DNA from: a candidate division FCPU426 bacterium
GTDB lineage: Bacteria > Oederibacteriota > PGYV01 > Palsa-1178
Assembly (NCBI GenBank): GCA_963840035.1
Contig: CAWIXE010000001.1
Coordinates: forward strand, 46,675-110,674
DNA: 64,000 bases
Direction of reading: 5' to 3'
Shown here: positions 45,468 through 56,841 of the stretch, piece after piece
Layout of the letters: the number at the start of each line of letters is the position of its first letter
Position numbering within the stretch: the first letter of the stretch is position 1
Made by a program: the position numbers and the translations under genes
Notes under the pieces: model-generated
What the model saw: only the letters and a program-made list of their open reading frames with translations
Databases searched by the model: none
What the model was told of the DNA's origin: nothing

Positions 45468-45495
45468 AAAGGGGCGGGATTTCTCCCGCCCCTTT
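45468..45495. terminator. Bidirectional terminator between convergent genes
   Basis: AAAGGGGCGGGA-TTTC-TCCCGCCCCTTT. Confidence 0.75.
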
Positions 45496-45524: not shown

Positions 45525-48500
45525 TTAATGAACCACCGCTATCTTCTGCGTCGATTTATAATAATCCGTCTCCACCGACACTATATACGTTCCGCTCACG
45601 ACCTTCTGCCCTTTATCGTTTGTGCCGTCCCATATAACCTCGTGCTGCGTTCTGGCTGACACCGGCCCGTCAAAAAGCGTCTTTATGAGGGCCCCTGTCC
45701 TGCTATAAATTTTTACCGTCGCGTTGTCATTTTCATACGCGTTAAAGACTATCCTGCTGCGCTCGCCTTTTTCAGGGTTTATTACGCTCTTATATAGTGT
45801 CACATCTTTTTCAGATATGGTTTCCTTTGTGTAGGCGCCGCTGCTTGTTCCCGCGTTTCCGCAGGCGTCAGCCCCGGTTACGGCCACCCTGTCTATGTCG
45901 CCCCAGCCTGTCTGTTTTGAGTAAAGATAGCGGAAAAACATTCCTGTAGTATCTCCAGGCACAGCAAAGGCAGTGCCGCTTAATACGGGTTTGTTGTCGG
46001 TATTGCCATGCGCGTATATTGTCAGCGATGGCGGTGTGACAAGCGGGTGAGTGCTGGTTATTTCCATTACCACATAATCCAGGTGTTCCGGGTTATAAAC
46101 AAGGTGCACCGAGAACCCGGGGGTGGCAGATGTACATGGCTGCGTGGAAGTGGCTGTCGCGGTAGGCGTGGCCGGCTTTGTGGACGTCCTGGTGGGCGTC
46201 GCGGTAAACGTGGGAGTTGCCGATACCGTATGTGTCAACGTGGCTGTAATTGTCTTCGTAGGCGTAAATGTAAAAGAAACCGCGCACGCGCATGTAAGCG
46301 ACAGCGTCGGCGTTGGAGTCGATGTGCGGGTCTGTGTGGCTGAATTTGTCTGCGTCAGGGTCACAGTGGATGTGACAGACGGCGTGGCCGTATTTGTCGC
46401 TGTCATGGTCCGCGTCTGCGTTGCCGTCATTGTTGCGGTCGGCGATACCGTCTTAGATGGAGTGTATGTGAAAGTTGCCGTGGTTGTGGCGGTCACTGTG
46501 TGAGGCGGGCACAAATCCTCTATGTTCCAGAGTATCATGTCGTATTGTTTTGAAGGCACGTAGGAACGGCCTGAAGCTATGGCCCTGCATACAGTCAGGT
46601 TCAGTATTGATGTCCCCTCCTCGTCATTGCCTGAATCGTAATACCTGCAGCCGCCAATGCCGAAAGTGGTATCAGCCGTCCCGTCAGGCAGGTATTTCCA
46701 AACGCATATGTCTTTATTTGCTCCGTTATGCCTTGTTCCACAGACCCATATGTTGCCCGAAGCGTCGCAAAACGCGTCTTTACCGCACGCGCCGCTCCCG
46801 CCTCCCGTGCTTGTGACAACGCCCGTCCCGTTGAAGGTGGTATCATAGGAGCCGTCGGCATTCATGACTATGACAATCATCTGCTGGCAGGTTAAATCAC
46901 AGCCTGAACCGTCATCAACAGAGCCTGTTATGACAATCTTGCCGCCCACGGTTATCGCTATTTTCACGGGTATGCAGTTCTTGTGGTTTATTACGGTGCT
47001 GATATACTTTCTGCAGCATGTTCCGTCGCCTCCAAAAGTATTCACCGGGGTCCCGTCCTCGAGGTAGCACCAGGTGACTATGGCGCGGCATGTGCCGGAA
47101 CAGCCCGGGTCATTAGAGGCGCTGTAGCCTGTCACGTATATTTTCCCTCCGCTGCACACTATGGAAGTGCCGCAGTCATCGCCGTTGCCGCCCGCCGCGT
47201 TATTCGATTTCACGCACCCGCCCGTGCCAAAGGAGGTATCCAGCGAACCGTCGTCATTGCATTTGATTATTATACTGTCATAATCCGTTCCGTTCCACGC
47301 CTTGCCCGTGCACACAATCTTCCCGCTTGAGTCAAAAGATATGCCGCAGCCGTATGATGGCCCGGTCCATGCCGCGTTCGCGTAAACTTTCCAGCCGCAG
47401 CCGTTAAATGTGGTGTCACATGAGCCGTCGGCATTGAACCTGTAAATGCACAGGTCAGAGCCTGCGCAGCCCGCCACAACTAATTTTCCGGAAGGGTCGC
47501 ACTCCATTGTGATGTCATTGTTCCACACGTAATTAGTCATCGGCCCCGGGCACTTTATTTTTCCGTTTTCCCCGAATGTCAGGTCTATGGACCCGTCAGG
47601 CAGGTATTTGTAAATGTATATGACATAGCATGTGCAGGTATCGTCCCAGATGATGTTCAGGGTGTAAATATTGCCTGAAGCGTCCTTGCATACTTTTTTT
47701 GAGGTATCGTCCCCGGGCCCACCTGTTATGACCGTGTCGTCAGGGAAAAATGACGACTGCGTCTGTGTTATGGTCGGGGTCAGGGTCATTGTCGCGGTTA
47801 TTGTAGGCGAAAAAGTCGGGGACAGCGGCGCAGGTGTATTGACCGGCGGGCATGGGTCCAGCCCGTATATTTCAATATCATCCACCATGAAATCAGACAC
47901 ATATGTCTGTCCAAGATTTGGGTCCGGATTTCTTGACTGAAACGCTATCGCGTACAACTGGCTCAGGCACTGGGCTTTATTCCGCAGCGACCCATAAGTG
48001 AGATTCATCATGGAAAAGGGTATGCTAATCTTCACCCATGTGCCGGCGGGAGTCTGTGCCGGGCCTATAAGATAGCTAAAATAATCCATTGTCGTCGGGT
48101 CAGGATTCAAAGAATCCATTAACATGACCTTGTATGTGCCGACCGTGTCTGTAATTCCCCTTTTTACCCGGAAACTTATACCGGACGCGCCGGATAAATC
48201 CCTTGAAGTTCCTGTAACATTTGTGAGCATGCATTCCATTCCGATCAATGGATATTTAAAATCCGCCGGCTGTGTTCCGCGTGTTACCGTGCCTGTGATG
48301 CCCGCGGCGTATCCCGTCCCGCCGTAACCCGGAGCGCTCATTATGAATCCCGATGTCGGGGGCCATACATATGATATTCCATAATTCACCGGCGCGCTGT
48401 CGTCGTAAGAACGCCATGCGCCTCCAAGGTAATTTACGTCATCACCGTCATTGCAGTCGTCAATTAGGCACGTGGCTGCAATGGTCGGCGTCATGGTGGC

Positions 48501-50587
48501 GGTATATGTGCGCGTTACCGTGTTGGTGGCTGTGTTCACCGCGGTCGGCATGACCGGAGTCAGTGTCGGCGTCGGCACGATTGTCCCGCACCCCGTGAGC
48601 ATAACAACACCATTTGAATCAGCTGTGATCCCGCCCGGAGTATTCGCTTTTATGGAAGCCACATTTGTAATGTTCACGCATGCGTTGACAATTCCCCACC
48701 ACGTGAGCGAGCCTTCAACCGCTTCAGAGCTGTCCCCGAGGCTCCACTTTAAAACCGGCCCGGTTGATGACGGCGGCGTCATTGCTCCGGCATAAGTAAT
48801 GCCTGCAGGCACAGTGTCATATACTTCAATCCCGGTAAAGGGCCTTGAGGTTGTCAGGATGAAATTATCAAATGAATTAGTCGCTGATATGTTCCTTTTG
48901 AAGAAAATTCCCGGCCGCCAGTCGCTGTAATTTCCGCCGTACATAAAATCAGGGTCAGCTGCGGCGCCTGTATCCGTCCATGTCATCCAATTATTCGGCT
49001 CAGGGTCCCCGCGCTTCCATACTTTTACGTTAAATATGTAGTTGCCGGCCGAAGGCGCAATGACGGTCTTTGTCTTAAACCATTTGCCCCCGGTCAAACC
49101 CGCGGAATTTACCGTGTCCAGCGCGTACCACGCAGGGGTTCCGTCAGATTTTTCTATGCTTATATACCCGGCGGGCGCGTTATCAATGGATAATGTCAGC
49201 GCGTAGTACCTCTTATTTGGCGCGGCCAGCCCGTTGCTTTTTATCAGGACAGATAAATCAGAAGATATGTCGCCGTTAGGGTTTATGAGAACGTCAGCTT
49301 CTACCATGGCTGAGTTTCGTATCTGCACCAGCGAAGTATCCGCGTTATCAAGGAGCAGCGCGGGATATTTTAATGAACCCGCGATGTCCGCCGTAATAAA
49401 ACGGTCGCCCGTATTGCACGGCTCAGAAACAGTCCACGTACCATTCTCCCCGTTAAACGGGTCGAACTTCCAGCCTGCCGGAGGGGAGGCTGAGTATACT
49501 CCGGGTGTGATATCATCAAAAGGCCTGAACGCTTTCAGGACTCCGCCTTCCGCGAGGTAGTCCATGACATAAGTTACCACATCCCCTAAAGACCCGGACA
49601 ACCGGCTTTGCGCCACATTTATGGTCAGCGGAAATGCGTCAACCGAAGCAGGAAAATCCACGACAATATCGGAGAGTCCTGTCATCCTGCCGGTGGCCAG
49701 CGTGGAAAACGCCGTCCCCGCAGGGAGCGGATTTACGAGTTTACACTTTACCCACACAGTGCCTGCCGCGTCCCCGGCCATTGATGTCCTGTCCGGAAAT
49801 ATCCAGGTAATGTTCCCGCTTGTTGACCCTATTGCCGGCGCAGCCGCCACAATTGAGCCTGTCGGGCCGTATGATTCAAGGCTTAAATTCCCGCCTCCCG
49901 GTATGGAACTGATTATTGTCAGAGGGCCGTTTGCGTATCTATAATCATATGAAAAGACAATTGAATCATTTACCGTCTGTAGAATGCCCGCGGACACTCT
50001 CCCGTCGAACGAAAAACTTTTTGCCTTAACAGGAGCAGCCAGGAAGTGCCGCTGTAAGTACAGTCAGCCGGCGGCACCCATTCGGTTTCGTTTAAATTAG
50101 AGTCCTTCATCACAACGTGCAGGTAAAGCATGTTGTTTGAACATCCTGGAAAATTAAAGCCCCCCGGTATGTGTACCTGATAAACTTTCACAAAAGTTTT
50201 TCCGTCCCCGGTGCCGATGCATGTATCACAGTCAGCAATGCCGCCGCCCGGACTTGGATTTGCCATATAGCCGATTGCCCCTCCGCCGCCCGGCAGCGCT
50301 GCCGGCTGCATGGCCGCAATATCAATGCCTTTGGCGCTTACCACAAAAACCTGCCCCGTGGCTGAAACAGCCGGATTTTGCCTTGCCGGATTGGTGCTTA
50401 TGGCTATGGCAATCTGATGGCTGTTAAATAGCTGGCCGCAATATGACACAGTGATGTTAACAAGGTCCCCGAAGTCCGGGTTTGGCTGGTCCATTGTAAC
50501 GCTTAATATCCTCGGATTTGCAAAAAGAGATGCCGCTGATAATAGCATAATCAGCGCAGCAACTAACGAGCTTTTTATTGTTTTCAT
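45525..50587 (-). CDS. Large secreted multidomain protein (N-domain, DUF11-like, CIA30/CBM11-like, Cys-rich delta-60 propeller, Thr-Pro linkers, FlgD-Ig tail), split by one frameshift near 50040
   Basis: ORFs 49970-50587 (signal peptide) and 45525-49997 join with one extra base; VYDTVP; DGSLDTSFG repeats; WDGTNDKGQKVVSGTY. Confidence 0.8.
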
Positions 50588-50618
50588 TTTATTCTCCTTA
50601 TATTATTCCCTCACTGCA

Positions 50619-50647
50619 TATGACAGAAAAAACCGCGTATTAGTTCC
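50619..50647 (-). promoter_or_regulatory. ECF sigma promoter
   Basis: GGAACT-N17-GTCATA. Confidence 0.75.
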
Positions 50648-50653
50648 ATGTTT

Positions 50654-51556
50654 TTACAACTGCATATCCAGGGTTATCCTGTGCGCCGTTCCCAGGTTTC
50701 CAAAAGGCTGGTAAGCGTAGGAAAACCTTATTTTATCGAGTAAAACGCCGATTCCCGTGCTTAAACCGCTCAAATCATGCCTGAAGCCGTATCCGGCCCT
50801 TGCCACAAATATGTCATATATCTGCGCCTCTGCCCCAAAATCCAGCGTAGGAACCTCGTCCTTTCCAAAGAGCCTGTTAACATCGACAGAAAAAAGCAGG
50901 GATGCAACCCCTAATACCTTGAATTTTGTGCTCAGTCCGGCTTTAATATTTGAAGGCAGAGGGTCGCTTATTTCCACATACGCGCTCTGAAACCCTATGT
51001 TCTGTATCACGGCCCCGGCCCTGGTGTCGGGATTACTGCCGAGTTCCACAAAAACACCCGCATCCGCGGCCACGCCCGCTTTCTGGTAAATGTAAAGCCT
51101 GCTGTAAAACCCTTTTATGCTTGCGCCCAGCGCCACTTTCGGCATGATATAAAAACCATATGACCCCGCTATTACAAGGTCGCAATTATCCACCCTGCCT
51201 GTTTCAACACCAAATTCATCAATATCGTTAAAATCCATTGTGCAGACAAACTGTATCGAAGCTGCCGCGGTTCCGGCACCCACAGGCATGGCCCCGCCAA
51301 TGTACTCGCAGTTTGTATCGGCAAACGAGGAAAAATGAGTGAGGGAAATTGAGGTTTTTGTCACCTGGACTAACCCGGCCGGGTTAAATATCATGGCTGA
51401 GAGGTCGTCGGCCACGCCGCAAAAAGCGCTGCCCATTCCCGATGTCCTCGCGGAAGGTTCCATTCGCAGAAAATCCGCGTCAACCCTTCCAGCCCCGCAA
51501 ATGATTGAGGGGATAAGCAGAAGCAAAAGTATTTTAGACATTGTAAAGTAATTCAA
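50654..51556 (-). CDS. PorV/PorQ family outer-membrane beta-barrel
   Basis: ADFLR..SAR..GMG.AF.GVADD..A..FNPAGL; ARAGY; FSYAYQPFGNLG.AHRITL. Confidence 0.88.
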   Translation of the reverse strand: MNYFTMSKILLLLLIPSIICGAGRVDADFLRMEPSARTSGMGSAFCGVADDLSAMIFNPAGLVQVTKTSISLTHFSSFADTNCEYIGGAMPVGAGTAAASIQFVCTMDFNDIDEFGVETGRVDNCDLVIAGSYGFYIMPKVALGASIKGFYSRLYIYQKAGVAADAGVFVELGSNPDTRAGAVIQNIGFQSAYVEISDPLPSNIKAGLSTKFKVLGVASLLFSVDVNRLFGKDEVPTLDFGAEAQIYDIFVARAGYGFRHDLSGLSTGIGVLLDKIRFSYAYQPFGNLGTAHRITLDMQL

Positions 51557-51663
51557 CCCCGTTTCACCCGCTCCCGTGATAATCTGAACCCGGATCCCTG
51601 TTTCCTGATTTACTGTATTATATAATAGTTTATGGACATTACAAGCGGCTTATGCAAAAGTTA

Positions 51664-51699
51664 AATAAAAAAGCGGGGGTTTTACCCCCGCCTTTTATT
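51664..51699 (-). terminator. Rho-independent terminator
   Basis: AATAAAAAAGCGGGGGT-TTT-ACCCCCGCCTTTTATT. Confidence 0.75.
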
Positions 51700-51743
51700 T
51701 AACGCTGTCCGGTCCGCCGAAACCTTAATTTTTCAGGATTGCT

Positions 51744-53696
51744 TTATCTTATTACCGCCACTTTGATGGTTTTTTTCTTTCCGCAGGCGTCGATTACTAT
51801 GTTATATATCCCCGAGACCACGTCTTTTTCATCGCTGTTTTTAGCGTACCAGGTGAAGTCGTGCAATCCCGCTTCCACGTCCCTGTCATTTATAACCTTG
51901 ATTAATTTTCCGTTTTTGTTGAAGACTTTTATCTGAACCTTGCATTTTTTCTCAACCCTGTACTTCACATGGCAGCCTTCACCCGGTTTGTCCACGACAT
52001 TGTCGTCGATTTCATCTATAAAATCGTCATCGTTCATATCCGGCGTTGAAGTGGCTGTCACTGTCGGAGTGCCGAAATACGGTGTCAATGTCGGTGTGGC
52101 CGTATAGGTATTTGCCGGAATGTGCGGCGTAAGAGTCTCTGTGAATGTCTTTGTCACGGCCGGCGTGACAACGGTTACGGTTCGCGTAACGGTCTGCGTG
52201 GCAGTAACAGAAGATATGCACGCGCATGTCGGCGTAAATGTAGACAATACCGGTGTCCTTGTCAATGTCTCTGTAAATGTCATTGTAGTTCCCGGCGTCA
52301 CAGCGGTTATGGTCCGCGTAACGGTCTGCGTGGCTGTCTCCGTACATATCACCGGCGGCGCTACCGGGTTCGGGGTAAATATGACTGTATTATTTACCTC
52401 ATCAGATTCCGCCACCTGTGAATCCTTATCAACTATGACCTGCGTTGACGTAAGCGGTGTATATTGGTTATAAAATACCACTGTCGTGCTTGCGCCGGCT
52501 CCAAGCCCTGCTACAACCACTGTATTGCCTTCCAAATCCACTACAAAAGATCCGGCTGCTGATGATCCGGTATTTTGCACAAAAACCCTCGCCACTGTCG
52601 GGTCAGTCACCAGGTTGCAGGCCGCGATTGGCAGCCTTACATAGTCCATGCTGGTAGCCGCAAGCTCAGGCAGGCCGGGGTCAGGTGTGGAAGTGTATGT
52701 TACCGTCTCAGTAAATGTCGGAGTGATTATTACAGCAGTTCTGGTAGGTGTGATGGTAGAAGACCCGGAGCATAACAAATTTGCGGACACAGTATTTGAA
52801 AATGTCTTCGCGTAGTACGAATCGGCTGCCGCCGCGCTTGTAACGCTCATTCCGCAGTTAATCACTTTTGCCACCCATGTAAGCGCGCCTGATGTATTGC
52901 TGACGGTCCCCAGATACCACTGCACAATTCCGGGGCCAGCAATAGTCGCCGCGGGGCTTGATGTTACATATGTCATGTTAGCAGGCACTGTATCATATAC
53001 GGATACTTCAAATACGTTGCCCACAGCCGTATAATTAATTACATACGCGATTTCGTCGTTTACCGCAAAATCCGTCCCGTTCTGGAGTTTTGTGATGGTA
53101 AAAGTATCCAGCACGGCTGTCATTGTGGCGGTGCAGGTAAAAGTAGGTGTGGCGGCAGGCGCGGTGGATGTCTGTGTCGCTGTCACAGTAAACGTAGGGG
53201 TTCCCGTTAAAGTCGGAAAAGGCGTAAGCAATATGATATTCAAAGGTATGGATGCCTGGCTTTGTACTGATGTGCAGCTGGTTAAAAACGAGCTGCCTCC
53301 AACCACCACATAATACTGTGTGTACGGTTCAATCGGCCCGGTCGGGACATTAATCACCCATTCCACTGTCTCGCAATGCGCTGACGCCTGTGAGTCTCCC
53401 ATATCATAACCGCTGGAGAAACTTGTCTCCGGGGCTATATTTATACCCGATTCCGAAACCTTTATCAGCTGTCCTGAAGTATTGCACGGCTGAAATGTCG
53501 TAAATTTTGATATTGCGAGCGCAAGGTGGCTTGTATCAGAAGCGTCCGCACAGTAAGTGAAGTTCACGGTAATTGCCTGGCCCACGACCTGTGACGGCGA
53601 ACTTATGGAATTAATTACAACCCCTGATAATACCGCATGAGCCGCAGCTGAAAAAAGCATCAGGATTATGAGGACTGCTATTTTTTGTTTTTTCAT
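51744..53696 (-). CDS. Secreted Thr-Pro-rich protein with DUF11, CARDB and FlgD-Ig tail
   Basis: Signal peptide; VYDTVPANMTY; VQNTGSSAAGSF...VAESDEVNN; FTWYAKN...VVSGIY. Confidence 0.85.
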   Translation of the reverse strand: MKKQKIAVLIILMLFSAAAHAVLSGVVINSISSPSQVVGQAITVNFTYCADASDTSHLALAISKFTTFQPCNTSGQLIKVSESGINIAPETSFSSGYDMGDSQASAHCETVEWVINVPTGPIEPYTQYYVVVGGSSFLTSCTSVQSQASIPLNIILLTPFPTLTGTPTFTVTATQTSTAPAATPTFTCTATMTAVLDTFTITKLQNGTDFAVNDEIAYVINYTAVGNVFEVSVYDTVPANMTYVTSSPAATIAGPGIVQWYLGTVSNTSGALTWVAKVINCGMSVTSAAAADSYYAKTFSNTVSANLLCSGSSTITPTRTAVIITPTFTETVTYTSTPDPGLPELAATSMDYVRLPIAACNLVTDPTVARVFVQNTGSSAAGSFVVDLEGNTVVVAGLGAGASTTVVFYNQYTPLTSTQVIVDKDSQVAESDEVNNTVIFTPNPVAPPVICTETATQTVTRTITAVTPGTTMTFTETLTRTPVLSTFTPTCACISSVTATQTVTRTVTVVTPAVTKTFTETLTPHIPANTYTATPTLTPYFGTPTVTATSTPDMNDDDFIDEIDDNVVDKPGEGCHVKYRVEKKCKVQIKVFNKNGKLIKVINDRDVEAGLHDFTWYAKNSDEKDVVSGIYNIVIDACGKKKTIKVAVIR

Positions 53697-53729
53697 ATTA
53701 TTCTCCTTGTTTTTTATCCCTTACAAAAC

Positions 53730-53758
53730 TATGACAGAAAACGCCTTAATAAAGTTCC
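53730..53758 (-). promoter_or_regulatory. ECF sigma promoter
   Basis: GGAACT-N17-GTCATA. Confidence 0.75.
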
Positions 53759-53760
53759 AG

Positions 53761-54708
53761 TTATTTTTCTTCCTGCGGCTTTCCATCATATATCTCTATG
53801 TCCAGGCTAATCCTGTGCGCCGCTCCCAGCATCTCAAAAGGCTGGTAGGAGTAGGAAAACCTCACCTTTTCCATGTTCACTCCGATTCCCAGCGAAAGGT
53901 TGCCTGTGTCATGCCTGAAGCCATAACCTGCCCTGATTGAAATCATCTGAAAAACATCCGCTTCCGCGCCGATATCCAGGGTGGGAAGCTCGTCTTTCAT
54001 CACCAGCCTGTTCACGTCGACGCCGAGGGTAATAATGGCGGCGCTGCCCGCGTGTATCCTGGCGCCTATTCCCGCCTTTAAATTTATGGGCATGGGGTCT
54101 GCTATTGATATGTAAGCCCCCTGTACTCCCGCGTTTTGAAGGACGAATCCCGCGTAAATGTCAGGGTTGCAGCCTAACTGCATGCGTCCGCCTATATCAA
54201 AGGCAAAACCCTGCTTTGAATACTTATAAAGGACGCTCCTGAATAATTTCGCGTTTACGCCAAGGCTTATGTCCGGCGTAACAGGGTAAGCGTATGAAAA
54301 TGTCCCGACTATGTCCATATTATCCACGCTTCCGTTCTCCACGCCGTAGGAATCATATACGGGAAAATCAAATGTATAGTTGACAAGCAGCGAAGCGCCG
54401 AAGACGCCTTTAATGCCGTCAAAACCCATGGCGCCGCAGAGGTATTCGCTGTTGTTGTCGGCGAACGAGGAATAGTGCGTAAAAGAAACAACGGGTTTTT
54501 TTATTGATACAAGGCCGGCCGGATTATAAAGGATCGCATTTATATCGTCGCTTATGCCCGCGAACACATTTGACATGGCCGCTGTTTTGGCGGGCGGTTC
54601 AAGGCGTAAAAAATCCGCGCCAACCCCTCCCGCGCCAAAAGCCGGCATCACAGTTAACACGATTAAACAGGCAGACAAAAAAAATGACCTGACCGCTTTT
54701 GTTCCCAC
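53761..54708 (-). CDS. PorV/PorQ family outer-membrane beta-barrel
   Basis: GADFLRL..PAK.AAM, YNPAGL, IRAGYGFRHD, FSYSYQPF..LG.AHRISL; start uncertain (GTG 54708, up to 54774). Confidence 0.88.
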   Translation of the reverse strand: MGTKAVRSFFLSACLIVLTVMPAFGAGGVGADFLRLEPPAKTAAMSNVFAGISDDINAILYNPAGLVSIKKPVVSFTHYSSFADNNSEYLCGAMGFDGIKGVFGASLLVNYTFDFPVYDSYGVENGSVDNMDIVGTFSYAYPVTPDISLGVNAKLFRSVLYKYSKQGFAFDIGGRMQLGCNPDIYAGFVLQNAGVQGAYISIADPMPINLKAGIGARIHAGSAAIITLGVDVNRLVMKDELPTLDIGAEADVFQMISIRAGYGFRHDTGNLSLGIGVNMEKVRFSYSYQPFEMLGAAHRISLDIEIYDGKPQEEK

Positions 54709-54859
54709 AATGTGCCCCCACATTAAAATAATCACAGATTCCAAATCACATATCCCAAAGGTGGTACGAATCACAAATCTCTGATTACAAGTCCCAAATT
54801 TAAACCAAACCCTTTTATATCTTCAGTCCTCTTTGGGATTTGGGATTTGGGATCTGTGA

Positions 54860-55801
54860 TTACTTTACTATCGCCGCTTTTATCTTCTGCTCTGTCAGTC
54901 CGGTCTTAATATAAATAATGTATTTACCTGACGGAAGGTTCATGCCTGACGTGTTCCTGCCGTCCCATTTTTCCTCGTATATTCCCGTTGTTTTATCCGC
55001 GTTAACCATTTCATTAACCGGTTCGCCGCGGAAATTATATATTATGATTGTAACCTTTGCCGTTTCCAGAACTTCATATTTTATATGCATTGTCTCTCCC
55101 AGCGAAGGGTTAAAGACATTGTTGAGTATTATTACCGGTTTGTCCAGGCGCGGGGTCTGCGATTTTACAACCGCGGCGGCGATGACTTTGTTTTCCTTTT
55201 TTTCCTCCTGCGCCTGCGGTTTTACTTCAAAAACGGTAACAGGCTTTACCTCATGCGCCGGGCCTTTGCCTGGCCCGTCATACGCGGCCTGGTTCTCCTC
55301 CGGTTTTGACGCCACTTCCACAGCAGCCTGCGGCGCTTCCTGCGTGGCGTGTTTTACGGCCGCTCCGTCATTTTTTATCAGCTTAGGATAGGTGGCCTGC
55401 TTTGCCGGCGGTGCGTATGCCACAATTGATTTTTCATTTTTATTTGACGCCATTGATCCATCTGTTTTTATTGTTATCTTACCCGCCATAAGCACCAGGA
55501 ACATGAATGCGGCAAAAGCGCCTGCCGCGCTTAATACGGCGGCCGGGGTCAGCTTAAAAGAAAAAATCGTGTCCATTATTGAAGGCGGCTGTACGCCCGC
55601 TTTTTTCCATACTTTAGAGTTGAAATCAGCTGGTATCTTTATCTCAGCCGGATTTTCCACAGCTGTTTTTATTATCTTATAGGCCATGTATTCGGCCGAG
55701 CATTTTTTACATCCGCGGGCATGCTCCAGGAATTCCGCTCCCGGCGCCGCCTTGCCTTCTTCAGCCTCTTTTAATGTTTTTTTAAACTCTGCGCACTTCA
55801 T
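54860..55801 (-). CDS. Zinc-binding anti-sigma factor with TM and C-terminal FlgD-Ig domain
   Basis: MKC...HARGCKKC (HxxxCxxC), one TM, NVFNP...WDGRNTSG..LPSGKY; 4-nt overlap with the sigma gene. Confidence 0.85.
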   Translation of the reverse strand: MKCAEFKKTLKEAEEGKAAPGAEFLEHARGCKKCSAEYMAYKIIKTAVENPAEIKIPADFNSKVWKKAGVQPPSIMDTIFSFKLTPAAVLSAAGAFAAFMFLVLMAGKITIKTDGSMASNKNEKSIVAYAPPAKQATYPKLIKNDGAAVKHATQEAPQAAVEVASKPEENQAAYDGPGKGPAHEVKPVTVFEVKPQAQEEKKENKVIAAAVVKSQTPRLDKPVIILNNVFNPSLGETMHIKYEVLETAKVTIIIYNFRGEPVNEMVNADKTTGIYEEKWDGRNTSGMNLPSGKYIIYIKTGLTEQKIKAAIVK

Positions 55802-56382
55802 GATTTTTCACCCATCATTTTTATAAGTTTCTTTTTAAGGCTTTCCCTCGCGCGGGAAAGCTTTGACTTCACGCTTCCCAGAGGCATTTTAAGCACCGCG
55901 CTTATTTCCTCGTACTCGAGCCCCTGCATGTCCCGCAGTATTAATATGTTCCTTGAATCCTCGTCAAAACCTTCCATGGCCAGGTTTATCATCCTGCGGG
56001 ACTCTTCCGCTTCCAGCTGGTCGTCCACGCCGGATTTTTTATCCCTTATGTCTATTTCAATCTTTCCTGTTTCTTCGTCGCCGTGTATGGACTCGGTATC
56101 AAAGTAGTGGCGCCTGTTTAAGGCATCCAGCCTGTTTATGCACATGTTCACAGCCACCCTGTAGAGCCATGTCGAGAACTTTGATTTGTGCTCAAAACTT
56201 TTAATGTTTGAGTAAGCCGCGCAGAAGACTTCCTGCGCCATATCCAGGGCCTCCTCGGAGTTGCGCATGTACTTTAAGCACAGCCCCGCGATTACCTGCC
56301 TGTATGCGGTGATGATCCTGTCAAAAGCCCCCCTGTCGCCTGCCTGGGCTTTACGGACGAGTTCCGCGTCAATTTCCTGCAT
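55798..56382 (-). CDS. ECF RNA polymerase sigma factor
   Basis: DMAQEVF, SKFSTWLYRVAVN, LEYEEIS..L..PLGSVKSKLSRAR. Confidence 0.96.
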   Translation of the reverse strand: MQEIDAELVRKAQAGDRGAFDRIITAYRQVIAGLCLKYMRNSEEALDMAQEVFCAAYSNIKSFEHKSKFSTWLYRVAVNMCINRLDALNRRHYFDTESIHGDEETGKIEIDIRDKKSGVDDQLEAEESRRMINLAMEGFDEDSRNILILRDMQGLEYEEISAVLKMPLGSVKSKLSRARESLKKKLIKMMGEKS

Positions 56383-56399
56383 CGTTCTCCCTCATAACA

Positions 56400-56428
56400 T
56401 TAGTCAGATTATGTTGCAAAAAAGTTCC
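56400..56428 (-). promoter_or_regulatory. Putative autoregulatory ECF promoter
   Basis: GGAACT-N17-GACTAA. Confidence 0.7.
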
Positions 56429-56841
56429 AATAAAAAATTGAAGATAGTGGATTTAAGATTGCGGATTAATAAAAGACCTAAAAATGCCTTTTTATCAGGT
56501 TTTGGTATATTAATCCGCAATCCCCAATCAACAATCTTCAATGGTTTTCCCTAACCCTCAGTATTATATAAGGAAAGCCGCTTCTTTTCAAGAATAAACC
56601 GCTTTACCTTCCTTATATATACAGGATGCCCTTTAAGGGTTATTTATATCTAATATCGCATATCCAATATTCCCCGTTTCGCTTGGCGGAACAAGGCATT
56701 AAAATTATCCTTTTAACCTGAATATGTTTATGTTAAGATATTGGAACTATTAGTCATAATTTGGATATCAATAGTGCTATTAGACGCGCTTATATCTAAT
56801 ATCTAACCGCGCATATCCGAAATACTATCAGGAGGATTTTG

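Follow-up and report, generated by a model that had tools for sequence, protein, structure and literature searches.

A candidate regulatory and export module linking an extracytoplasmic function sigma factor to PorV-like barrels in candidate division FCPU426

Why should an anti-sigma factor end in the same kind of domain as the secreted proteins encoded beside it? The question is raised by a locus in a 64,000-nucleotide stretch of DNA, hereafter the window, from a candidate division FCPU426 bacterium (assembly GCA_963840035.1, contig CAWIXE010000001.1). Between positions 45525 and 56428, six genes, all on the minus strand, encode in this order an extracytoplasmic function (ECF) sigma factor, an anti-sigma factor, a PorV-like barrel (PorV1), a secreted protein (cargo 1), a second barrel (PorV2) and a second secreted protein (cargo 2). 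The first-pass annotation had proposed this order and these families, both of which hold, and had seen in them a candidate self-monitoring export system resembling a type IX secretion system (T9SS). We read the locus as a conserved trans-envelope regulatory and export module, in which sigma control is coupled to a PorV-like barrel, and give this reading as a whole a probability of roughly 0.55. Its gene content, homologies, conserved order, promoters and separate PorV clade are observed. The binding of the anti-sigma tail to the barrel is predicted from a model of the complex, and we infer that export by this module may be self-monitored.

The sigma factor gene (55798-56382) encodes an RpoE/SigW-like protein of 194 aa with regions 2 and 4 (Sigma70_r2, 59.2 bits; r4_2, 45 bits), which places it among the ECF (group 4) sigma factors. 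Both domains were above cut-off, as was TIGR02937 (113.7 bits, cut-off 42.9), while the score against the RpoE model TIGR02939, 139.5 bits, was below the cut-off of that model. The anti-sigma gene (54860-55801) overlaps it by 4 nt and encodes 313 aa. The N-terminal motif H27-x3-C31-x2-C34 is invariant among the 17 homologues aligned; of 56 short members of the family, 47 have HxxxCxxC and all have a hydrophobic segment. It should be added that Pfam zf-HC2 was significant in none, matching two of the seven anti-sigma family members with a best E of 0.039. Since this model was not significant, the label of zinc anti-sigma, given already in the first-pass annotation, stands on the motif, on gene position and on a weak match of the family profile to RsiW (5wuq_C, E 0.0035, residues 1-68), by which the product is a predicted zinc-binding anti-sigma (ZAS)-type protein. 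A word-index protein search gave six relatives of this anti-sigma factor. When 1.84 billion representatives were searched in full with HMMER and its profile, a larger and coherent family emerged: 50 of the best 150 matches were single-stretch, near-full-length and 240-347 aa long.

In the AlphaFold2 model of the anti-sigma factor, built on 17 homologues, three N-terminal helices (predicted local distance difference test, pLDDT, 74-87) are followed by a transmembrane helix (residues 86-106), by a disordered linker of about 110 residues (107-215, pLDDT below 50) and by a seven-strand beta-sandwich (223-311, pLDDT above 90), an Ig-like sandwich of the kind formed by T9SS C-terminal domains (CTDs). 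The fold search with this tail returned the PorZ entry 5m11 as the best match (93 aligned columns), then FlgD, and further matches were the PorU entry 6za2 and the CTD of a translocon-bound substrate, NucA (8glk_D). The tail of the family profile also matched FlgD. Moreover, the tails of the anti-sigma factor, cargo 1 and cargo 2 all passed FlgD_ig (33.2, 35.7 and 35.0 bits, respectively; cut-off 27), are mutually homologous at 28-29% identity over 79-89 residues (43-47 bits; E=1e-7 between the two cargo tails) and match the models of PorZ and PorU at their C-terminal ends. The domain of the anti-sigma factor is situated at the extreme C-terminus and bears the same terminal basic-hydrophobic motif as the cargo tails. 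The homology of the three tails had been proposed from motifs, and it is confirmed here.

Both barrels belong to the PorV/PorQ family, with PorV1 (53761-54774) scoring 145 and PorV2 (50654-51556) 150.5 bits on NF033709 against a curated cut-off of 90. Neither reached the cut-off for PorV proper (NF033710, 250; 44.4 and 47.5 bits) or for PorQ proper (NF033711, 220; 88.6 and 110.1 bits), and both scored higher on the PorQ model than on that of PorV. The AlphaFold2 model of PorV1 has 14 strands (pLDDT 76), and its top Foldseek matches were PorV chains, 8gl6_F (query TM-score, TMq, 0.72) and 6h3i_F (0.71), ahead of TodX and FadL, in agreement with the earlier description of the barrels as PorV-like. 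PorV2 is 50% identical to PorV1. The PorV1 gene lies 86 nt downstream of the anti-sigma gene, with neither an ECF-type promoter nor a strong terminator between them.

An interface between barrel and tail, which the first-pass annotation had put forward for modelling, was predicted for PorV1 (residues 48-337) and the anti-sigma tail (residues 220-313), a separate alignment being used for each. Each of three runs gave an interaction prediction score from aligned errors (ipSAE) of 0.91; their contacts agreed to 97% or more, and the partner pLDDT was 89 or higher. Of 80 solved complexes 58 reach the mark that was passed here, and of 110 mismatched pairs 2 do so; with alignments supplied separately, as in this case, these counts hold only roughly. 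In the model, the tail contacts PorV1 on alternate inter-strand loops (103-107, 137-144, 182-185, 220-227, 288-291 and 313-316), that is on one face of the barrel, as well as on its N-terminal segment (49-57). Given the usual topology of such barrels, this face would be extracellular. In solved translocons, as described in the portions available of PMC10994853, the CTD binds extracellular loops of PorV which protrude into the SprA pore, and the predicted interface agrees with this position. The result for the modelled pair is a likeness to solved complexes and not a proof that these two proteins bind.

The phylum comprises 99 species genomes. Each of the ten families of the order has full-length anti-sigma homologues, as do several further families. 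Twenty loci, selected solely by a full-length anti-sigma match and labelled L0xx, were compared. The sigma gene is directly upstream of the anti-sigma gene in 19 of them, and a PorV gene is present in 18, the remaining two stopping at a contig edge. The order sigma, anti-sigma, PorV was found in 12 loci, in 11 of which (L021-L031) large CTD genes follow. The expectation that gene order is kept in relatives is thus borne out throughout the order, with variations in the wider phylum, and that of one dedicated PorV per cargo is not: in orthologous loci, a single PorV gene stands beside one (L022), two (L021) or at least three (L025) cargo genes. In most relatives the single cargo gene is an orthologue of cargo 2, not of cargo 1.

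The barrels of these loci are also set apart by phylogeny. A tree was computed from 60 PorV domains by quick search under LG+G4, with no bootstrap. In it, 22 of the 24 PorVs from sigma loci formed one clade with a Shimodaira-Hasegawa-like approximate likelihood ratio test (SH-aLRT) value of 98, and the 36 other paralogues that this genome has all fell outside it. PorV1 clusters there with orthologues of the same family, and the nearest relative of PorV2 is the sigma-linked PorV of another family (L023). Furthermore, the genome has a second module (C2:327243-341360) composed of PorV, a 331-aa open reading frame (ORF), PorV, sigma, an anti-sigma factor with CTD (321 aa) and two CTD cargo genes (1297 and 1609 aa); its sigma factor matches that of the window with E 1.3e-39.

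Promoters connect the sigma factor with its neighbours. Same-order loci share GGAAC-N16/17-TGTC/TGAC ahead of the sigma gene, 35-51 nt from the start codon: the strict form with a 17-nt spacer, GGAAC-N17-(T/A)G(T/A)C, occurs in 13 of the 20 loci at that distance, in three further same-order loci the match has a spacer of 16 nt, and in L034 it has GAAAC. In the window, this site (ttGGAAC-N17-cTGAC, 56399-56431, minus strand) ends 17 nt ahead of the sigma ATG. Sites of the same type precede cargo 1 (ctGGAAC-N17-cTGTC, 53729-53761, beginning at the PorV1 stop codon, 33 nt to the ATG) and cargo 2 (atGGAAC-N17-cTGTC, 50618-50650, 31 nt to the ATG at 50587), both on the minus strand. As read in the sequence, each of the three is followed by a ribosome-binding site and then by ATG. 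A matrix built from ten other genomes only was run along the 3.46 Mb genome on both strands. The best score was that of the cargo 1 site (30.1 bits), followed by that of the sigma site (29.2 bits), and the cargo 2 site came fourth (23.9 bits); maximum scores in six Markov-simulated genomes were 18.8-22.6. The site ranked third (24.0 bits), C1:195191 on the minus strand, lies outside the window and has no ORF of at least 100 aa within 200 nt downstream. These sites back the proposal of the first-pass annotation that the sigma factor controls the cargo genes.

The same arrangement recurs in relatives. In leave-one-out scans, 9 of the 11 loci L021-L031 showed such a site ahead of their big CTD genes, at a distance of 25-50 nt; of the two others, L024 has one found by pattern, and in L031 none was found. 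Distant families have a variant, GGAACC-N-AGTC, ahead of the sigma gene, which is also present ahead of the gene after the anti-sigma gene in L033 and apparently in L037, and a further site precedes a second pair of small CTD gene and PorV in L038. In five loci of the distant families (L033, L036-L038 and L040) the sigma gene comes after a gene of about 600-625 aa, at or just past whose 3' end an ECF-type promoter is located. Weaker matches of the form GGAAC/GAAAC...TGTC were recorded on the plus strand of C2 at 192177, 200114, 345563, 362544 and 65137, with 16-18 bits, within the random maxima; those at 345563 and 362544 are upstream of CTD genes and that at 65137 is upstream of a PorV gene. 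They may represent the regulon of the paralogous sigma factor.

Strong terminator-like hairpins follow cargo 1 (51668-51696, minus strand; 13-bp stem, 7 GC, T run) and cargo 2 (45468-45495, minus strand; 12-bp stem, 8 GC), and PorV2 is preceded by a sigma-70-like promoter, TTGTAA-16-TATAAT (51617-51644, minus strand), which is a consensus match only. From the promoters and terminators, the predicted transcription units are sigma, anti-sigma and PorV1 from an ECF-type promoter; cargo 1 from its own ECF-type promoter up to a terminator; PorV2; and cargo 2, again from its own ECF-type promoter up to a terminator. As judged from these sites, the sigma operon is predicted to be autoregulated, and each cargo gene is preceded by a promoter of the same type. 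A pairing of cargo 1 with PorV2 was considered, since elsewhere in the genome PorV genes often come right after CTD genes. It was dropped because a strong terminator and a promoter-like site separate the two and ECF-type promoters stand before both cargo genes. PorV1 follows the sigma and anti-sigma genes with no ECF-type promoter or strong terminator between, and the cargo genes have promoters of their own; the invariant pair is therefore the anti-sigma factor and PorV.

The genome yielded 39 PorV-family matches, 27 of them above cut-off (two of the 27 only after summing neighbouring in-frame matches), and 9-36 such matches were found in every one of the 24 genomes of the order. With purpose-built profiles, 40 ORFs were assigned to PorV, and a FlgD_ig-type tail was detected at the end of 78. 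A tail-bearing gene is directly upstream on the same strand for 21 of the 40 PorV ORFs, and downstream for five; in 1000 random placements, upstream tail-gene neighbours averaged 0.73, with a maximum of 4, which suggests many cargo-carrier pairs in this genome. A SprA-like protein of 2165 aa is encoded at C2:374859-381356 (188.2 bits, E 1.5e-55, the cut-off being 200), and the SprA model found matches in 92 of the 99 phylum genomes, seven of which were above cut-off. The SprA-like gene adjoins genes for an O-antigen-ligase-like protein and a heptosyltransferase, as well as for proteins rich in fn3 and for a small CTD protein. A tetratricopeptide repeat (TPR) protein encoded near it was considered as PorW/SprE and rejected, since the PorW/SprE model gave generic TPR matches only and gave them in 12 of 14 control genomes too.

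How could such parts work together? An RpoE-like ECF sigma factor would be held by a single-pass anti-sigma factor, whose periplasmic end would consist of a disordered tether and a CTD of the kind that marks surface proteins for PorV-type carriers. The linker of about 110 residues would, by its length, be long enough to reach the outer membrane, and in the published model, as far as the portions available of PMC10994853 describe it, the translocon cavity is open to the periplasm. In that case the tail could dock on its own PorV with the anti-sigma factor still in the inner membrane. It would dock as a pseudo-cargo on the cognate PorV, at or in the cavity of the SprA-like translocon. A working export route would then engage or extract the tail, and the anti-sigma factor would be inactivated and the sigma factor freed, which would switch on its own operon and the cargo genes, so that the whole would act as a checkpoint of export competence. 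That docking changes sigma activity at all, and in the direction from capture to release, is a tentative proposal. It is likewise possible, and somewhat doubtful, that the anti-sigma factor serves as pseudo-substrate, on a tether, to a SprA/PorV export route poor in motor parts and outside Bacteroidota. Capture or pulling of its secretion-signal domain by its own PorV carrier would then destroy it, and the sigma factor would turn the giant surface proteins on. If true, this would be an FlgM-like secretion checkpoint made from type IX parts, in a phylum-wide system with dozens of PorV paralogues, many of them beside a gene for a CTD protein.

Several results weigh against the reading as a regulatory and export module and against the mechanism just outlined. 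The NCBIfam models of GldL, GldM and GldN (PorL/M/N) gave no match in the genome, and the NCBIfam model of PorP found no match either. Several of the T9SS models gave no match in the control genomes, so that these components count as not found with the models used and not as absent. GldK was matched only on its generic C-terminal part (27-35 bits). The catalytic part of PorU was not found, all 37 matches of NF033707 covering only model positions ~926-1095, i.e. the tail. With no GldL/M/N found, there is no identified motor for the energy-needing step of the canonical system. The search for SprA and PorK/L/M/N/U homologues, proposed in the first-pass annotation, thus produced a SprA-like protein and the generic part of GldK, but not PorL/M/N or the catalytic part of PorU. 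The same results, with the SprA-like protein below cut-off and GldL/M/N, PorP and the PorU catalytic part not found, agree with its remark that this lineage does not otherwise look like Bacteroidota, in that it is not a canonical T9SS organism.

The gene order is not invariant: in five distant loci the anti-sigma gene is followed by a small CTD protein and a long PorV, in L032 and in the second module of this genome PorV is upstream of sigma, and in L035 no sigma gene stands beside the anti-sigma gene. For the modelled complex, the controls scored 0.00, 0.00 and 0.66, the last being the one in which the barrel was replaced by an unrelated protein, and PorV-CTD complexes are present in the Protein Data Bank (8gl6 and 8glk), so that the high score may reflect memory of those structures. 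The tails pass the generic FlgD_ig model only, and T9SS-specific models remained below cut-off: TIGR04183 gave 18.9 (anti-sigma) and 20.1 (cargo 2) against 23, and PF18962 15.9 against 27. Accordingly, of the profile scan proposed in the first-pass annotation, FlgD_ig and the PorV/PorQ family passed, whereas Por_Secre_tail (PF18962/TIGR04183) stayed below cut-off and zf-HC2 was not significant. The idea of tail mimicry, in which the anti-sigma tail would be most like its own cargo tails, was rejected, as several other tails of the genome are at least as close to it. Finally, the cargo tails of the second module are of another subtype than the anti-sigma tail and are absent from its BLAST matches.

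Other explanations draw on the same parts. In the one that survives best, the module would sense occupancy or competition: the anti-sigma tail on PorV1 would be displaced by new cargo tails, or the reverse, and the system would report load in a feedback and not check competence. The parts and the predicted interface would be the same as for the checkpoint. At this locus the anti-sigma and cargo tails are of the same subtype, ranking each other third to eighth among the 54-58 tails matched per query in a search of 78 tails, and the sigma factor is RpoE-like; a precedent is the sigma E system of envelope stress, which senses the C-termini of unassembled outer-membrane proteins. The second module speaks against it, its cargo tails differing in subtype and not being among the BLAST matches of the anti-sigma tail, and so does the presence of one PorV beside one to at least three cargo genes in orthologous loci. 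We judge sensing of this kind unlikely.

It could also be that there is no physical coupling, the Ig-like domain of the anti-sigma factor being an ordinary periplasmic sensor and PorV a co-regulated carrier or anchor. FlgD_ig is indeed a widespread Ig-like fold: at E<=0.001 the anti-sigma profile finds 170,973 proteins of the library, for the most part via this domain. The failure of the T9SS-specific tail models and the control at 0.66 would fit this view. On the other hand, the domain is at the extreme C-terminus with a cargo-like terminal motif, its best fold is PorZ 5m11 with PorU 6za2 also matched, the anti-sigma factor is accompanied throughout the phylum by a separate PorV clade, and the modelled complex passed the mark. 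Taken together, these points make an uncoupled sensor quite unlikely. As for outside-in signalling in the manner of FecA-FecR-FecI, in which a barrel of the PorV subfamily would sense a ligand or contact and signal to the anti-sigma tail to release sigma, it would suit the three-part layout of a barrel, a membrane anti-sigma factor with a periplasm-spanning tether and an ECF sigma factor, as well as a PorV subfamily dedicated to this locus, but it is very unlikely, because FecR, FecI and TonB-dependent transducer domains were all missing from Pfam and NCBIfam scans of seven locus proteins and the loops of the PorV1 model are short, with no obvious ligand-binding or signalling extension.

The gene model of the locus needs one correction. 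Cargo 2 starts at 50587 and not at 49997. Residues 1-181 of the orthologous cargo protein align to 50587-50039 in one frame, and those from ~190 onward to 50033-48471 in another, while the orthologues are uninterrupted across this zone (between about 50039 and 49988). This two-frame alignment implies that cargo 2 is a single gene of ~1690 codons, frameshifted in this assembly. By orthologue alignment, its 5' part (49970-50587, minus strand) is a 205-aa ORF with a signal peptide and N-domain; the frameshift zone (49988-50039, minus strand) contains A5 and T5 runs; and the 3' part (45525-49997, minus strand), a 1490-aa ORF, encodes a delta-60 repeat/DUF5122 beta-propeller, Thr-rich linkers and the FlgD_ig tail. 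Cargo 1 (51744-53696, minus strand; 650 aa) has a signal peptide, an N-domain, Thr-rich linkers, CARDB and the C-terminal FlgD_ig tail. Its N-terminus is 29% identical to the N-domain of cargo 2. Besides N-domain and tail, the two cargo proteins have a mid-domain in common (31% identity over 127 aa), and in both the interdomain linkers are long and Thr-rich with TPTxT-like repeats. The locus is flanked by housekeeping genes, with glucan phosphorylase on one side and IscR-like, NifS, NadA and MnmA on the other; since its downstream neighbours recur in relatives, the locus belongs to the chromosome proper and is no mobile island.

The significance of the module lies in what is known of comparable systems. 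How type IX-like secretion is sensed and linked to gene expression is known in outline only, and a secretion-signal domain fused to an anti-sigma factor, with its presumed receptor barrel alongside, offers a tractable two-protein interaction and three defined promoters. Moreover, the diversification of PorV carriers with type-A-like tails across the order, with no PorL/M/N or PorU found, bears on the ancient core of the type IX system. Our literature searches, supplements aside, turned up neither an anti-sigma factor whose tail is of the T9SS type nor, PorA excepted, an ECF module linked to PorV. In P. gingivalis, according to the portions available of PMC7712824, PorA carries a CTD, binds PorV and, via unknown intermediates, acts on PorXY-SigP. 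There, as here, a PorV-binding CTD protein of T9SS type feeds into an ECF sigma factor for secretion-related genes. In the same portions, however, PorA is a free, secreted surface protein, the path runs through the two-component PorY/PorX, and no anti-sigma factor appears. In the module described here the CTD is fused to the anti-sigma factor itself, and a dedicated PorV paralogue follows the sigma and anti-sigma genes in the same unit.

Flavobacterium johnsoniae provides another parallel: as reported in the accessible parts of PMC12618676 and PMC10994853, cognate PorP/SprF-like shuttle genes adjoin those of type B CTD substrates. A linkage of cargo genes to their own carrier barrel is likewise seen for 21 of the 40 PorV genes here; in contrast, the carriers are of the PorV/PorQ family, the tails are type-A-like (FlgD_ig) and no PorP-family gene was found. 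Type A CTDs of Bacteroidota are said, in the part of the literature available, to use a single PorV, whereas many PorV paralogues are present in this genome. In the PorQ-PorZ and PorV-PorU pairs of the attachment complex of P. gingivalis, barrels of the PorV family hold surface proteins via a retained CTD. The barrels described here favour the PorQ model and the anti-sigma tail finds its best fold in PorZ. The attachment complex is named in the portions available of PMC12365241. The locus differs from these pairs in having no PorU or PorZ body, in barrels that reach no equivalog cut-off and in dozens of paralogues instead of two.

With respect to signalling, FecA-FecR-FecI consists of an outer-membrane barrel, a periplasm-spanning single-pass anti-sigma factor and an ECF sigma factor, encoded together. 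The three-part layout is the same here, but the families are unrelated and the contact domain has the fold of a secretion signal. FlgM, in the flagellar checkpoint, and sigma E/RseA/DegS exemplify the inactivation of an anti-sigma factor as a read-out of export or assembly. FlgM differs in being soluble, itself secreted and without a PorV-type barrel; RseA has neither a secretion-signal domain nor such a barrel, and a likeness to its system is seen in the RpoE-like promoter of the locus (GGAAC...TGTC). Set beside these systems, the module combines ECF trans-envelope signalling with type IX-like carriers and is conserved across an uncultured phylum.

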